Shown: piece after piece, positions 1 to 24,000 of the stretch | Position numbering within the stretch: the first letter of the stretch is position 1 | How the letters are laid out: each line of letters begins with the position of its first letter | From: Mycoplasmatota bacterium | GTDB lineage: Bacteria > Bacillota_I > Bacilli_A > MAG-NZ | Direction of reading: 5' to 3' | NCBI GenBank assembly: GCA_018394315.1 | Contig: CP074575.1 | Span: forward strand, 1,458,615-1,522,614 | Length of the DNA stretch: 64,000 bases | Program-made: the position numbers

Positions 1-3000
1 TAATAAATAGGTAACTGCTGCAATTACACTTTTCCCTGTGTCAACTCTTTAAGTTTCATCTAATCATCTCGTTAAACAAATTAACTTAGAAAGAATTTTG
101 TCGAGTTGGTGTTATTTACAATCCTATGAGAAAGTTTAAAAAACTTAACAAGGATGATGTTGAAATAGTTACAATAAGTCCTAAAGTCCTAAAATCTATT
201 CTTTATTATTTAAGGTATGCAGAACAAACTCTTAAAGTACTAAAAAAAATAGGTAGTCGATTAAAGAGTGAATCATGGTTTTTCGCAACACATGATTTCA
301 ACTTTTATCACTTACCTATGCTATTTTAATGGCACCCCAGGAGAGATTCGAACTCTCTAAACACTAATTTAAGCTTATATATTATTAAGTTTTCAAGTAA
401 TTATATCATACGACATGGAAACTGACTTTCCACCTTAGAAAAAAAGGTGAGATTATTTCTCACTTTTGACATTAACTGATTTTAGTACAAATAATACCTT
501 TTATTGGTACCCTTAAACGTTCTGAGTAGGATAAATACCGATAATACCGTCGTTTCAATCACTTATAACTATCAAATTAGGTAAATGTAAATATTCACAA
601 TGTATTATCAGTTCATTTTCGATAGCATCAGTTAGCGTTATTACCTTATCATCAACTAACAGTACATAATCAGAGAATGAACCTCCTATCATAGTGTAAT
701 TACCAAAAGTTTCTTCATAATCAAGATCATAACTATTGGAAGCATTATAATACATAGGATTTTGATACATCCCGATATATACACCATTTCCATCAAAGTA
801 ATTACTTATAATTTCTGGGACAAAGTGTTTTTCGTTCATAAACACTTTCTCTGCTGTAGTCTGACCAGGACCAGTTTCTAGGTAAATACCGAAAGTTATA
901 TTAACGAGGTTACCAACTTTAAAATCGTTTGATACCCCATCGGCATACTCAGTTTTCTCACTAATAGAAACATATGTTAATCCCGGCTGGAATAAAGATT
1001 GTACTAAAATATCGTGCTCATCAAAATCAACAATTGGTCCAATTATGTTGTTGTTTACACCAACAATTGGTGGATAATATGCTTTTACTGCGGTGGCTGT
1101 CCAAGGATAACTGGATTTATCAAGATCTTTTACTTCAAATTCTAGATGATATCTCCATTGTTCTATCTCAGGGAATTCATCAGAGGTCTCTGTGTCTTCT
1201 AATATTTCAACCCATATATGACCAAAGTTTGATAGTTTATCGGGAATAAGTAATTTATTTCCTATTTTATCTCTAGGCCACCCACCAATCATATTTGCAT
1301 CGGATAACATTTTAGCCTCTTTGGTATAATCTCTTTTTTCACACGCTCCTTTTATGGAACATAATTCCTCTATAGATATCCCTAATTCTTTAATACTCGT
1401 TCTACCATTAATCTTATAATCTGGACCAGATAACATATATGCATTACCATCTTTGAAAGCAAATACTCCTGTATAACAATTACTCCCCCCCTGTCCAGAT
1501 ATTTTCCATTCGTTATTTAATAATACAGGCCATACAATATCTTCAGTACAATTTTCAGAAGAGATAGTGTCCCTTTTCCATATTTCATAATTGTTGATTT
1601 CACCTATATAGATAAGATCTTTCATTGGTATTTTGAATCTATCACTTATGATTGATGCACTAGGATTATTATTACATGAAGAAACTAATACTATTGTTGT
1701 CAAAATAATGAATACTTTAATATACTTCACAAAAATCACCCTTTCTCCACACTTGTACTCTAATAATATCATATCAGGCCCAAAAAAAAGAAAAATAGGT
1801 TCGATAGAGTAATATTTTGGATTAGAGAAGGATTCGAACTCTCTAAACACTGATTTAAGCTTATATATTATTAAGTTTTCAAAAGCATTATAACATACGA
1901 CATGGAAACTGGCTTTCCACCTTAGAAAAAAACGAAAAATATTTTTCGTTTTTTAATGTAATGATAATAGAGAAAGATTCTCTACCCTACAGATATAACC
2001 ATAAGGTTAGTGTTTTTTTGATATTAGTTGTTGTATGTACTGTAATTTGGTAGTTACAAAAGTATATGATAAAATTGAAATAAGTTAGGAAATGATTATC
2101 AAAATAAAGGGTGAATAAGATGAATAAAATATTAACCATGTTTTTTCTATTAGTGTTAAGTAGTACTTTAATAGCGTGTGAGAAGGAAACAGTTCCATTG
2201 AATGAGGGTGTGAAAAACCCATTAGTAACTGAAGGGAATTCTGAGTTTGCTTTTGATATCTTCAGGGAGTTAAATAATGATGATTATAATGAGAATATTT
2301 TTATATCTCCTTTTAGTATTTCGAGTGCACTAGCAATGACTTTGAATGGGGCAGTAGGAGATACTAAAGATTCAATGCAAACTACACTGCAACTAAAAGA
2401 CATAAATATTGAGGATATGAATAATGGGTTTGCATATTTAAATCACATGTTAACAAACCTTGATGATGATGTTGAGATTAATATCGCAAATTCGCTTTGG
2501 GTGAAAGATGAATTTACAATGAACAAGCAATTTGAATTTGATATTAAAAGTAATTTTAATGCGAATGCTACTTTGCTGGATTTTGAAGATGATAAGTCGG
2601 TAGATGTAATTAATGAATGGGTAAGTGACAAGACTAATGATTTAATAGATGAAATAATTATAGGAATAGATCCATATGCTGCATTAATCTTAATAAATGC
2701 GATATATTTTAATGGTTCTTGGCAAGATGAATTTGATCCTAGCAAGACTCAATCAAGAGATTTTACTACAATAGACAAAAATGTTATACAAGTTGATATG
2801 ATGAACAGAACCGATGAAATCGGTTTTTATGAGGATAGTGAAATCACAGCTGTAAAACTACCATATGGTGATGGATCAATTAGTATGTATTGTGTTTTGC
2901 CTAATGGAAATGAAGACATAAATTCTGTGATTCGAGAGATGAACGTAGATAAGTGGAATGATTTAAGAAATGAAATGAACTACTTTTATGAAGTTACTCT

Positions 3001-21000: not shown

Positions 21001-24000
21001 GACAACACAGATATATTTGCATTTATCTAATTCTAAAGTACAAAACGAACATCGAGAATTCTCACCGATTAATCGTTTTGTGTAAAAATAAAAGTAAGCT
21101 GAGTCTCAACACATGAATACCTCAATGTCCCAACACATGAGGAAGTGTTTTTTCGCTTACTTGTGCTATTTTAATGGCACCCCAGGAGAGATTCGAACTC
21201 CCGACACTCGCCTTAGAAGGGCGATGCTCTATCCAGCTGAGCTACTGAGGCATTTAATTATTTGACGCTTATCTATTTTAACTAATAATTATTGATTTGT
21301 AAAGTAAAATTTAAATTTTTTTTATGTGATATGATACATGTTAAAGTTAATCCGAATAATAATCATATTTCTTTGAATTTGAATCTATATTTGATAGAAT
21401 TAATGTAATAGATAATAGATCTCAATGGAGGATATAAATGGAAAAGTTAGTTATCATTGGAGCTGGTCCTGGTGGATATGAAGTTGCGATTGAAGCAGCT
21501 CAAAAAGGGTTAGAAGTAGTTTTGATTGATAAAGACGAGTTAGGTGGGACTTGTTTGAATTATGGGTGTATTCCAACAAAAACACTTTATAAATCTTCTG
21601 AAATTATTAAGTCGATTAAAGGTGGAAATCAGTTTGGAATTGATGCAGAATATAAAATTGACTTTGAAAAAGTTATTAGTAATAAAGATAAAATAGTTGC
21701 TGATCTTAAAAATGGAATTGATTTCTTAATCAAGAAAAATAAAATTGAATTTATAAAGGGTGAAGCAACGTTTGTTGATGAAAGAAGTATAAAAGTAAAT
21801 GATCAAGTAATCGAGGGAGATTATTTCATTATCGCAACTGGTTCAGCTGTGAGAATGCTAGATATTGAAGGAGTTGATAGTGAAGCGGTCGTTACATCAA
21901 AAGAGATGCTTTCTCTTAATCAAATACCTAAGACTTTAACTGTTATTGGTGGAGGAGTAATAGGTGTTGAATTAGCTTCAATATATAATTATTTCGGTTC
22001 TGAAGTTACTATTTTAGAGTATCAGAAGAATTTATTAGGATATTTTGAAGAAGATATATCTAAGAGATTTAAACCTGTTTTAACAAAGCAAGGTATAAAT
22101 GTAGTTACAGGTGCAAATGTAACTAAAATAGATAATAACACTGTCACTTATAATATAAAAGGACAGGAAAATAGTATTGATGCAGAATTAATACTTATGT
22201 CTGTTGGAAGAATTGCTTATATGGACAACTTAAATATTGAGAAGATTGGAATTGAATTTGATAAAACTGGGATTAAAGTAAATGATAATTTTCAAACAAG
22301 TATTCCTAATATCTATGCTGTGGGTGATGTTCTTGGTGGAAGTATGTTAGCACATACTGCTACATTCCAGTCATATAAGGCACTATCACATATTCTTAAT
22401 GAAGAGAATACGACTGACTTTAATATGATACCAGCATGTGTATTTACTTTTCCAGAATTAGCATCTATCGGTTTAACTAGAAAAGAGGCTAAGGAGAAGT
22501 TTGATTCAATTGAAGTCAGAAAAGGACAATACTCTGCAAATGGTAAAGCTAATGCAATGGGAGAAAATACTGGCTTTATTCAGATTATTCTAAACGATGG
22601 ATATATAGTAGGAGCAAGTATAATGGGATATAGTGCTAGTACTATTATTCATGAGATAGCTTTAATTATAAATAGTGGTAAAAGAATTGATGAGTTCAGA
22701 GATATGATATTTGCACACCCAACATTATCAGAAGTATTATCAAGTGCAATTAGAGAATAGTGATAAAATAATAGGAGGATGAAATGGAAAGAAGTGGTAA
22801 AAGATTTATAATATTGATTTCGGTTTTTTTAGTATTGATAATTATAGCTGCAATATTACTGAAAGTTACTGAGGATGAAAAAACCGTTATGATGGAAAAA
22901 TATACAACACTGACTACATACGATCATGTTTATGACATAGAAACAATGGAAGAATTTGAAGAGATTGTAGCGACAGGTGAAAAGGCGTTTGTTTATTTTG
23001 GCCATCCAGATTGTCCAGCGTGTGTAGCTATGGTACCTCATATAGATAGATTAGCAAAAGAAAATGAAATAGAAAAAGTTTATTATGTTGAATTTCATTT
23101 CATGAGTGATTTGGCTGCTGAATGGGGTGAAAATGGTACTTACGATTACAAAGGTACGCCTGCAGTAATGTTATTTGATGAGGGTGAATTTGTTAAGAGT
23201 TATCAAAGTGACGATTATTCAGATGGTGAAAATTTATTAGTAAAATTAGATGCATTTTTTAAAGATTACGTATAGGTGATATAATGAGATATTCAATGAA
23301 GGTAGAAGGAATTACTTGTTCAAATTGTGCTAAAACTATCGAAAATACCTTTCAATTGTATGAGAGAGTTTCCTGCAAAGTAAATGTAAGTGCAAACAAA
23401 ATAATATTCAATTATGACAGTGATTTAATTTCTTTAACACAAATAGCTGATATCGTACGTCAAGCAGGGTATACCCCAATTTTAGATACGGATACAGAGA
23501 ATTCACAAAAAGACTTTAAAAGAGATATTTTGATATCTCTTTTATTGACTACCCCATTATTATGGACAATGTGGCATCACTTAGGTGCTACATGGATGAC
23601 ACCAAAGCTTAGTATGTTTTTAATGCAACCTCTTGTTCAAATCATTCTAGCTACACCAGTTCAATTTTATGTAGGTCGAAGATTCTTTATAGGTTTGTAT
23701 CATTCCGCAAGAAAAAAAGTTTTTGGAATGGATGCGTTAGTTGTTTTAGGTACACTAAGTGCTTATATATTCAGTGTCATTAAAAGTATTGAGGCTTTAA
23801 ATGGTGGAATTTGGATAGATTTTTCTACTCATATGATGCCAGAACTATATTTTGAGACTAGTGCTACTATAATAACTGTTATCTTAATAGGAAATTATAT
23901 AGAACATATTGCGAAAAACAGAACTTCTGATGCTTTGGTTGATTTAATTAATTTAGGAGCTAAGGAAGCGAGAATTAAAGTAGATAATGTAGAGAAAATG

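Follow-up and report, generated by a model that had tools for sequence, protein, structure and literature searches.

The window, a stretch of 64,000 nucleotides whose position 1 is position 1,458,615 of contig CP074575.1 of a Mycoplasmatota bacterium, carries a row of small genes separated by copies of one site, followed by an element backbone, a tyrosine integrase gene and the genome's single tRNA-Arg(TCT) gene, the last two lying where the preliminary description had placed them (Table 1). Every unit is laid out as a core, an arm, its gene or genes and a unit-specific end, and the genes occur on both strands while the sites keep one orientation. Several units hold two to four genes or integrase remnants, like decayed islands. 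The remnant at 126..329 lies immediately left of the acceptor-stem site at 330..467; the junction at 11566..11888, the other acceptor-stem copy of the window and likewise with an integrase remnant, matches the integrase end and tRNA at 71% identity across 213 nt. For the protein of unit L, the best atlas score was 0.84, which is a lead only. By eye, a weaker Phe-like site, below the 13-bit cut, can be seen at ~9591-9609 between the YbjQ-like and DUF3784 genes. Six- and seven-digit coordinates of the form 14xxxxx below refer to the contig; G000 is the genome studied, G001 its sister species and G002-G005 the relatives compared.

Table 1. Features of the array and of the adjoining element, in window coordinates.
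Feature	Position	Strand	Evidence
Integrase gene remnant, 67-codon ORF	126..329	+	55% identity over 40 aa to the intact integrase
attP-like junction: tRNA 3' end, core, arm	330..467	+	HMM match; 28 bases left of core identical to tRNA side
Unit L gene, probable lipoprotein, family unassigned, 4 array copies	555..1850	-	no Pfam match
Site, GA-TTCGAACTC core and arm; arm of serpin unit	1831..1953	+	HMM
Serpin gene, unit S, 3 array copies	2111..3337	+	PF00079 E 6e-107
Site	3390..3508	+	HMM
One-gene unit, 179 aa, no assigned family	3547..4086	-	gene call, domain search
Site	4190..4311	+	HMM
One-gene unit, 105 aa, no assigned family	4343..4660	-	gene call, domain search
Site, core variant CTCGAAC	4968..5086	+	HMM
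One-gene unit, 310 aa, no assigned family	5196..6128	-	gene call, domain search
Site	6286..6402	+	HMM
238-aa gene	6737..7453	-	92% DNA identity over 832 nt to copy in another unit, contig 1448385
Site	7713..7831	+	HMM
Two-gene unit, 203 and 166 aa, no assigned families	7881..9014	-	gene call, domain search
Site	9117..9238	+	HMM
tRNA-Phe anticodon-arm-type site behind Arg arm	9276..9297	+	21 bits, matrix trained on G004 sites
Two small genes: YbjQ-like 91 aa, DUF3784 113 aa	9312..9989	-	Pfam
Truncated site, core and half arm	10109..10177	+	HMM positions 1-67
GIY-YIG domain gene	10208..11356	+	PF01541 E 1e-5
attP-like junction: integrase 3' remnant, tRNA 3' end, core (one change), arm	11566..11888	+	sequence comparison
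One-gene unit, 392 aa	12003..13181	+	no Pfam, NCBIfam, PHROG or PADLOC match
Diverged site, then winged-helix gene 3' end: complete element end	13196..13387	+	repeat D13, HMM
DUF3800 gene and three ~140-nt repeats (D8, D11, D17)	13727..14738	+	PF12686; Rfam DUF3800-I sub-threshold, E 0.99
Arm without Arg core, preceded by tRNA-Trp-like core	14915..15023	+	13/15 match to Trp motif; HMM positions 26-115
Small winged-helix gene, end at arm; candidate directionality factor	15026..15259	-	HTH_11
Element backbone: 282-aa protein, phage-type regulator, two small genes, DNA methyltransferase	16589..19188	-	domain searches
XRE-family regulator	19833..20045	+	PF01381 E 4e-10
Integrase promoter region: inverted counterpart of arm palindrome and -10 box	20069..20106	+	30/38 identical, ungapped
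Tyrosine integrase, 315 aa, XerA/XerC-like, intact R-K-H-R-H-Y	20138..21085	+	profile, alignment, fold comparisons
tRNA-Arg(TCT), single genome copy; core 21190-21200	21175..21251	-	tRNA annotation

Searching the genome with an HMM trained on 20 full copies revealed 23 sites (E <= 2.4e-8), all on the + strand at contig 1420404-1473637 and 12 of them in the window; the reversed genome gave 0 matches with the same HMM. The repeat next to tRNA-Arg(TCT), in a single orientation, was therefore described correctly. Beyond these 23 copies there are a 29-nt partial copy at contig 1424913, two copies with a different arm (1439330 and 1455092) and, at 1435320 and 1442108, two that carry the tRNA end but arms of other kinds. 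The copies are spread over a 67-kb stretch with tRNA-Arg(TCT) at its end. The statement that the genome holds no copies elsewhere was too strong, as weak relatives of the arm occur outside the array: the HMM finds five in islands at other tRNA or tmRNA genes, and one more within the integrase's own promoter. Nor is the block left of the array unrelated to it. The block belongs to the same variable region, because in G002 the tRNA is only 39 nt from a response regulator whose counterpart here is at contig 1412199, and because it contains three tRNA-Trp-type sites and two further Arg-type sites. An assembly artefact is ruled out, since the duplicates are 77-96% alike rather than identical. Rfam returned nothing beyond the tRNA and the sub-threshold DUF3800-I match, the exact 20-mer of the site was absent from the viral contigs searched, and the 14-mer core was present in 2 of 8 genomes of the order.

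The site combines a T-loop core with an arm, which holds an extended -10 box, an operator-like palindrome and a hairpin. At 22 of the 25 main sites the likeness to the tRNA ends no more than 3 bases from the core, and identity with the tRNA side stops after exactly 2 bases in 17 of the 25. The tRNA end is retained at three sites, and comparison with the tRNA side bears out that they keep the acceptor stem. By manual grouping, the 22 acceptor-less sites have 16 different left ends, with G at base -2 in 20 and A at base -1 in 21. The arms differ on average at 12 of 94 columns, and their first 50 bases are nearly constant; the extended -10 box is preserved in 18 of 20 arms and the palindrome in 19 of 20. 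A canonical -35 box is absent from this promoter-like sequence, and a consensus scan misses most copies; scanning for consensus promoters and terminators gave no useful signal (115 versus 93 +/- 10; 5 versus 4). When arms were compared with integrase promoters, the promoter of the own element scored best in 4 of 4 related elements (43-47 versus 17-35).

Sequence comparison supports the earlier proposal that the site goes back to an att site used by a tyrosine integrase that targets tRNA genes; so read, the repeat is the attachment site of an element with a XerA-like integrase. The preliminary description overlooked that an ordinary integrative element supplies this arm, and likewise that tandem accretion is already published and that other tRNAs of the genome have smaller arrays of the kind. 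A dispersed promoter or terminator repeat or a miniature transposon, starting with a T-arm by chance, would explain the promoter-like box and hairpin, but we regard it as very improbable and largely refuted: 23 of 23 copies lie on one strand in one region, three run on into the tRNA end, and equivalent arms adjoin the cores of other tRNAs.

The integrase is colinear with XerA over residues 149-307, and its best fold matches are XerA, Tn1549 Int and the lambda Int core, with IntI4 only at rank 28. It has no arm-binding domain. We notice that the ~35-residue insertion near patch III, which marks IntI, is missing in comparison with XerA, and that the score against TIGR02249 is 62 bits with a cut-off of 265. 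Folding three sites (four strands) gave separate short hairpins instead of the one long imperfect hairpin of attC, and in place of attI/Pc and promoterless cassettes, the integrase adjoins a tRNA and most arms bear the promoter-like box. A true integron with IntI, attI and attC would share the general layout of an integrase and a gene array, but with two defining features already failed we give it virtually no credence. What stands of the integron-like cassette array first proposed is that the units are cassette-like, recurring whole, bounded by cores and set among new neighbours; membership among integrons does not.

The locus is arranged like a tRNA-targeting integrative element: the tyrosine integrase adjoins a tRNA gene that is intact, and the displaced 3' fragments share its orientation. 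G002 and G003 have this tRNA-Arg without an island. At this tRNA, G005 carries an 11-kb island with another arm and G004 8 kb of other genes. Relatives of the integrase adjoin tRNA or tmRNA genes, several with repeated sites, and in most of them repeats are scarce or absent over the 10-20 kb taken. Two intact paralogues (50-55%) are encoded elsewhere in the genome; what would tie the array to the adjacent integrase is position and promoter likeness only. The backbone is 93-96% identical to that of the element at tRNA-Ser(TGA), and contains no match to conjugation or relaxase families; the methyltransferase is the sole PADLOC match. A weak atlas lead describes the 282-aa protein as replication-like. 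The winged-helix protein, which has a 33% relative in the tmRNA element and similar genes in the tRNA-Ser(TGA) island, is a candidate directionality factor. A viral identity of the larger tmRNA element was unsupported, as its large membrane-type genes have no family.

Seven units are copies of two types, the serpin unit S (n=3) and the probable-lipoprotein unit L (n=4). Their copies are 77-96% alike, for L from end to end, and each has its own arm; the serpin copies are 92-93% identical to each other and diverge most close to the C-terminal loop. All seven have different neighbour pairs, and the orders S-L and L-S both occur. The left arms of the three serpin units show 0-1 differences in 94 columns, a closeness matched by 1 of 1140 arm triples, and these units have three different upstream flanks and right-hand arms that differ at 10-15 columns. 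At arm position +20, an A is found in 3 of 4 L units and 0 of 16 other arms, and therefore those crossovers would lie within ~20 bases of the core, an argument from a single base. In the serpin units the first diagnostic arm base is only at +52, which leaves room for homologous recombination in the arm. No donor sequence was found to run on beyond a unit's end. Taken at sequence level, this evidence points to movement of single units at the core; the duplicates are 4-23% diverged, and therefore no very recent move is seen. Serpin queries had no match in 5 relatives, and the L protein has weak relatives in 2 of the 5.

The sites may instead have been made by the integrase while RecA-type recombination between the 120-nt repeats duplicated and reordered the units. 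The mean arm difference and the nearly constant first 50 bases would suit this process, and one unit retains 86 nt of the end of the adjacent serpin unit, as after tandem duplication. We consider it improbable: no pair of adjacent array units recurs as a block, the +20 base goes along with the L units, and whole units of a Phe system are reshuffled with only ~22 shared bases. Such a length is short for homologous recombination. This second array, based on tRNA-Phe, has whole units common to two genera, and Phe-type sites nest within the Arg array; in G004 an integrase of 287 aa adjoins tRNA-Phe. The sister species has 6 site matches over 4 contigs, as had been reported; there the same junction of Arg arm and Phe site is followed by a different gene, and two sites flank a gene pair that in G000 stands without any. 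Among 401 genomes of the class, only 2 contain the Phe 14-mer more than 3 times, a count that sets no bound on the spread of the phenomenon, given that other lineages may differ in stem sequence.

On the other hand, the array might be static scars of ordinary accretion, left by successive whole elements that decayed, with the recurring genes as cargo and no unit ever moved singly. Accretion is published, in the sections drawn on here, for streptococcal CIMEs, Dehalococcoides ssrA islands and Prochlorococcus islands; the three junctions with a tRNA end, two with integrase remnants, fit it, as do the smaller arrays at Ser, His and Gln tRNAs and at tmRNA in the same genome, which mostly retain the tRNA end. 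Random decay, however, does not account for a tRNA end that is lost at one and the same base in 17 of the 25 sites, nor for the identity of whole units from end to end. Simple push-out predicts the best-conserved arms nearest the integrase, where we count 15 differences (13198) and 8 (11769) against 3-10 in mid-array. We hold this account to be unlikely, with more weight than recombination by RecA.

The reading we favour, with a probability of about 0.6, is a stack of att-bounded modules from small tRNA-targeting integrative elements, many cut to one gene and moved singly. Whole elements would first have integrated in tandem at the tRNA-Arg T-loop, leaving the junctions with tRNA end and integrase remnants. 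The integrase, lacking an arm domain, would also have used degenerate GATTCGAAC-like secondary sites, so that backbones were cut out and cargo was left between two cores without the tRNA end. Units may then be released by recombination between two cores and go back into any site of the array. Entry into the tRNA gene would be barred to them, since insertion of a unit that lacks the acceptor stem would disrupt the sole Arg(TCT) gene. Finally, the XRE protein would bind both the palindrome of the integrase promoter and that of every arm, and might thereby jointly control recombination and the promoter reading into the next unit.

A wider reading, which we advance tentatively and at less than even odds, is that this Bacilli family possesses a counterpart of integrons that does without IntI and attC: several integrases specific for tRNAs, targeting the Arg T-loop, the Phe and Trp anticodon arm and the tmRNA end, would each serve a pool of one-gene cassettes that move singly between arrays and genera. 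The cassettes would nest in each other's arrays with minimal tRNA-derived sites as bounds, those of the Arg system each bringing a promoter tied to the integrase's regulator. If single units still move, this would be a second route to cassette gene shuffling where complete integrons are not found, and stacked islands trimmed at secondary att sites suggest how cassettes could be born. Island finders that reject internal tRNA fragments or integrase-less intervals would overlook such arrays.

A literature search of main texts, mostly outside subscription journals, turned up no account of an array like this one in the lineage. The pdif modules are plasmid-borne, use the host XerCD and often have inverted sites, whereas here the integrase is element-encoded and the sites are chromosomal, directly oriented and tRNA-derived. 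Like the array, pdif/Xer modules of Acinetobacter plasmids hold genes between short sites with a Xer-type recombinase and no IntI, in the part consulted of PMC7399989. Integrons and CALINs, as far as the cited sections of PMC4889954 go, share small gene units, co-oriented sites, an adjacent tyrosine recombinase and duplicated and reordered units; the array differs in having no IntI insertion, attC hairpin or single attI/Pc, a tRNA-derived site and genes on both strands. The same sections report no complete integron in Firmicutes or Tenericutes, CALINs in Firmicutes, and an origin of integron cassettes that is not known. Prochlorococcus tycheposons and tRNA islands likewise involve tyrosine-integrase elements at tRNAs, scattered integrase fragments and partial tRNAs, but these fragments are described, in the portion cited, as remnants of older integrations rather than as a regular array of one-gene units with a conserved, promoter-bearing arm (10.1101/2020.12.28.424599).

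Accretion of islands at tRNA or tmRNA genes is the closest known process among the accounts drawn on in part here. The Dehalococcoides ssrA islands, in the excerpted text of PMC3146451, have more than 12 att repeats within 100 kb of the tDNA, a crossover in the T-loop, a conserved island-side motif and 15 islands without an integration module. Many att repeats near the tDNA, the T-loop crossover, the island-side motif and module-less islands recall the array; unlike it, those islands use a serine recombinase and keep the 3' end in the repeats, and that text says that no strain has duplicate islands, compared with our 7 duplicate units. Streptococcal ICE/IME tandems consist of a few decayed elements in the relevant passages of PMC5704250, whose CIMEs are, as here, integrase-less modules that keep att sites and are stacked in tandem beside an integrase-bearing element at a tRNA; the array exceeds them with ~25 sites, mostly one-gene units recurring in new orders and without the tRNA end.

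The genome (G000) is one contig of 2,165,257 bases with 31% GC, and the window covers its positions 1458615-1522614. An HMM built from 20 aligned copies of the site located 23 Arg sites, all on the + strand between contig positions 1420404 and 1473637, with 12/23 in the window; the reversed genome used as control gave 0. The same-strand repeat of the preliminary description is thus borne out. Its claim that copies occur nowhere else goes too far: five weak relatives lie in islands at other tRNA/tmRNA genes. A further weak HMM match, to the arm and inverted, falls in the integrase promoter. 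Further copies came from BLAST and motif scans: a partial one of 29 nt, two whose arm is of a second type, and two of the tRNA-end kind with other arms. In a related genome (G002), tRNA-Arg(TCT) directly adjoins a response regulator whose counterpart here is at contig 1412199, so that genes adjacent there stand ~67 kb apart here. A tRNA-end remnant was looked for at the far left end of the G000 region and was not found.

Features of the Arg region, its units and related arrays
Feature	Location	Observation
DUF3800 gene, then three ~140-nt repeats	window 13727-14738	repeats match Rfam DUF3800-I weakly
tRNA-Trp anticodon-type sites within Arg region	window 14915-15023; G000 1430880, 1432604, 1433391	one precedes an Arg-type arm
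Element backbone	window 16589-19188 (-)	
Methyltransferase-XRE gap	window 19190-19830	~640 nt, no long ORF, GC-rich inverted motifs; no match in Rfam
XRE-family regulator	window 19833-20045 (+)	
Integrase	window 20138-21085 (+)	315 aa
tRNA-Arg(TCT)	window 21175-21251 (-)	
Serpin genes, five in G000	window 2111-3337; contig 1443897, 1452187 (L050); 199897; 263542	
Unit with cysteine-rich 92-aa ORF adjoining radical-SAM gene	contig 1449308-1450957 (L050)	possible peptide-modification pair
Phe sites, G000 (L052)	576068-583862	14, one strand
Phe arrays, related genome G004 (L100, L021-L023, L035, L102, L101)	near 838-855, 1500-1559, 1623-1630, 1729-1747 kb	
Phe array, sister species G001 (L103)	C63	
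Backbone of tRNA-Ser(TGA) element	G000 659797-662397	
tmRNA element (L049)	G000 1043126-1058712	
Two-gene integrase unit at tmRNA (L030)	G049 964237-968057	1.9 kb, exact tandem duplication
tmRNA-end repeats, loci with related integrases in metagenomes and genomes	L078 5533-15398; L063; L073	~1 kb apart; second half unlike tmRNA

Read on the + strand, the site consists of GA-TTCGAACTC, complementary to the tRNA T-loop, and then an arm of ~115 nt. Read on the - strand, this arm contains a hairpin that differs in sequence from copy to copy, the palindrome TGGAAA-N5-TTTCCA (19/20 arms, at most 2 mismatches) and, oriented toward the core, TGnTA(T/C)AAT (18/20). Left of the core, tRNA identity stops within 3 bases in 22/25 sites; in 17 it extends for exactly 2. 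The acceptor stem is retained in 3/25 sites, and integrase remnants adjoin two of these three, the junction expected from stacking of whole elements. The Trp-type motif has 15 matches genome-wide at up to 2 mismatches, the tRNA counted.

The 25 intervals between sites measure 0.56-3.9 kb, save one of 14.4 kb. Whole units recur: a serpin unit (S) in three copies, 92-93% alike, and a probable-lipoprotein unit (L) in four, 77-96% alike, each aligning from core to next core, while a 238-aa gene is present in two different units. All neighbour pairs of these seven copies are different, and the orders S-L and L-S are both found. We regard a mere dispersed repeat as very improbable. The sites could also be static scars rather than the ends of moved units; with the stacking junctions on its side and the end-to-end likeness of whole units against it, this reading is unlikely and yet carries some weight. 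The arm goes with the unit on its right: serpin left arms are nearly identical (0-1 differences in 94 columns; 1/1140 triples as close), right arms are divergent (10-15 differences; 582/1140 triples), and the right ends of serpin units, unlike their left ends, have a common flank to the left of the core. The left arms of L units are less alike (6-11 differences), and one base, at arm +20, is common to 3/4 L units and occurs in no other arm.

The array genes lie on both strands and most have no Pfam family; among the families in units beyond the window are LytTR, radical SAM, spore permease, TetR and FMN reductase. The three array serpin genes are 88-90% identical and diverge strongly near the C-terminal loop, which we take to be the reactive centre. 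This divergence suggests that the serpins may have different target proteases.

The integrase has all six catalytic residues, is closer to XerA/XerC/XerD than to IntI, and is colinear with XerA at the place of the IntI insertion. In its model (pLDDT 85), the N-terminal part is all-helical, without a separate arm-binding domain. It has few close relatives (one search gave 11 proteins at E <= 1e-30, self counted, and another gave 42), with Mycoplasmatota and Izemoplasmatales named in their records; a tRNA or tmRNA gene adjoins the integrase at 10 of 15 loci examined from 25 in genomes and metagenomes. In its backbone genes, the element is 93-96% identical to the tRNA-Ser(TGA) element, whereas the integrases are only 54-55% alike and the tRNA targets differ, which points to an integration-module swap. 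The tmRNA element shares this backbone and adds several large genes in a row (367, 898, 372, 700 aa), none with a family match, which may represent a helper virus or a transfer module.

Between the arm and the sequence upstream of the integrase, 30/38 positions agree. Three related elements show such a match too, and in 4/4 elements the arm scores highest with its own integrase promoter; the segments were picked by eye, so the scores describe a match and are no blind test. We infer that whole elements would stack at the T-loop of tRNA-Arg, that secondary cores would serve to trim them, that the element's integrase would excise single units and re-insert them at array sites, even at present, and that the XRE protein would control both the integrase promoter and the arm promoters. 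P2 Cox and 186 Apl are precedents for a regulator binding a promoter and an att arm. We put this mechanism at roughly 0.6. Counting against it, no very recent duplicate occurs among the units, the crossover bound rests on one base, several units are multi-gene, and a donor was looked for and not found. Reordering of the duplicates might instead be driven by RecA, which we consider distinctly improbable.

Smaller arrays occur in G000 at Ser(TGA), Ser(GCT), His, Gln, Trp and tmRNA genes. Sites of the tmRNA-end type number ~11 within 70 kb in G004, with an arm of their own, and seven in the related genome G049, where the tandem duplication may be genuine or may come from the assembly. The sister species has six matches to the Arg site on four contigs. 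Its contig C227 has sites on both sides of a gene pair that stands without them at G000 1503210-1505199. On C115, a Phe-type site comes after the arm, an arrangement also present at window 9119-9297 (82% over 186 nt); the gene behind this junction is that at 579253 in G000, unlike at the window junction.

The Phe site, ~22 nt, is complementary to the tRNA-Phe anticodon arm; an exact 15-mer from it occurs 54 times in G004, spread over several clusters, and 0 times in the control. Small genes are separated by these sites, and whole units are common to clusters and genera. Some of the 89 units compared match over their whole length, from cluster to cluster within G004 (487/487 nt at 99%; 743/743 at 98%) or from G000 to G004 (89% over 746 nt). 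Cassette-like exchange via very short sites is thus shown within the family. A 287-aa integrase adjoins tRNA-Phe in G004, and its top G000 match (37%) is the integrase at tRNA-Trp; the Phe system differs from the Arg array in site and probably in enzyme. Because Phe units exchange whole, the cassette reading of the Arg array becomes more plausible, and the Phe arrays may be the cleaner integron analogue. At G004 1514-1559 kb, three site types are interleaved: tmRNA end plus arm, Phe anticodon arm, and a Trp-anticodon-like motif ~45 nt ahead of some Phe sites.

The array had been called integron-like. The likeness in working stands; by the definitions in PMC4889954, however, it falls short on IntI, attC and attI/Pc alike, and a true integron is practically excluded. 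In general, the array fits the accretion of att-flanked modules as published sources describe it (PMC5704250, PMC3146451, 10.1101/2020.12.28.424599), but most of its sites lack the tRNA end and its units recur. Islander counts 4 tandems of at least three among 3919 islands and discards internal tRNA fragments (PMC4383910). Our literature search found no account of such an arrangement. This locus contributes a neighbouring integrase that is intact, duplicated units in changed order, and the match between arm and promoter.
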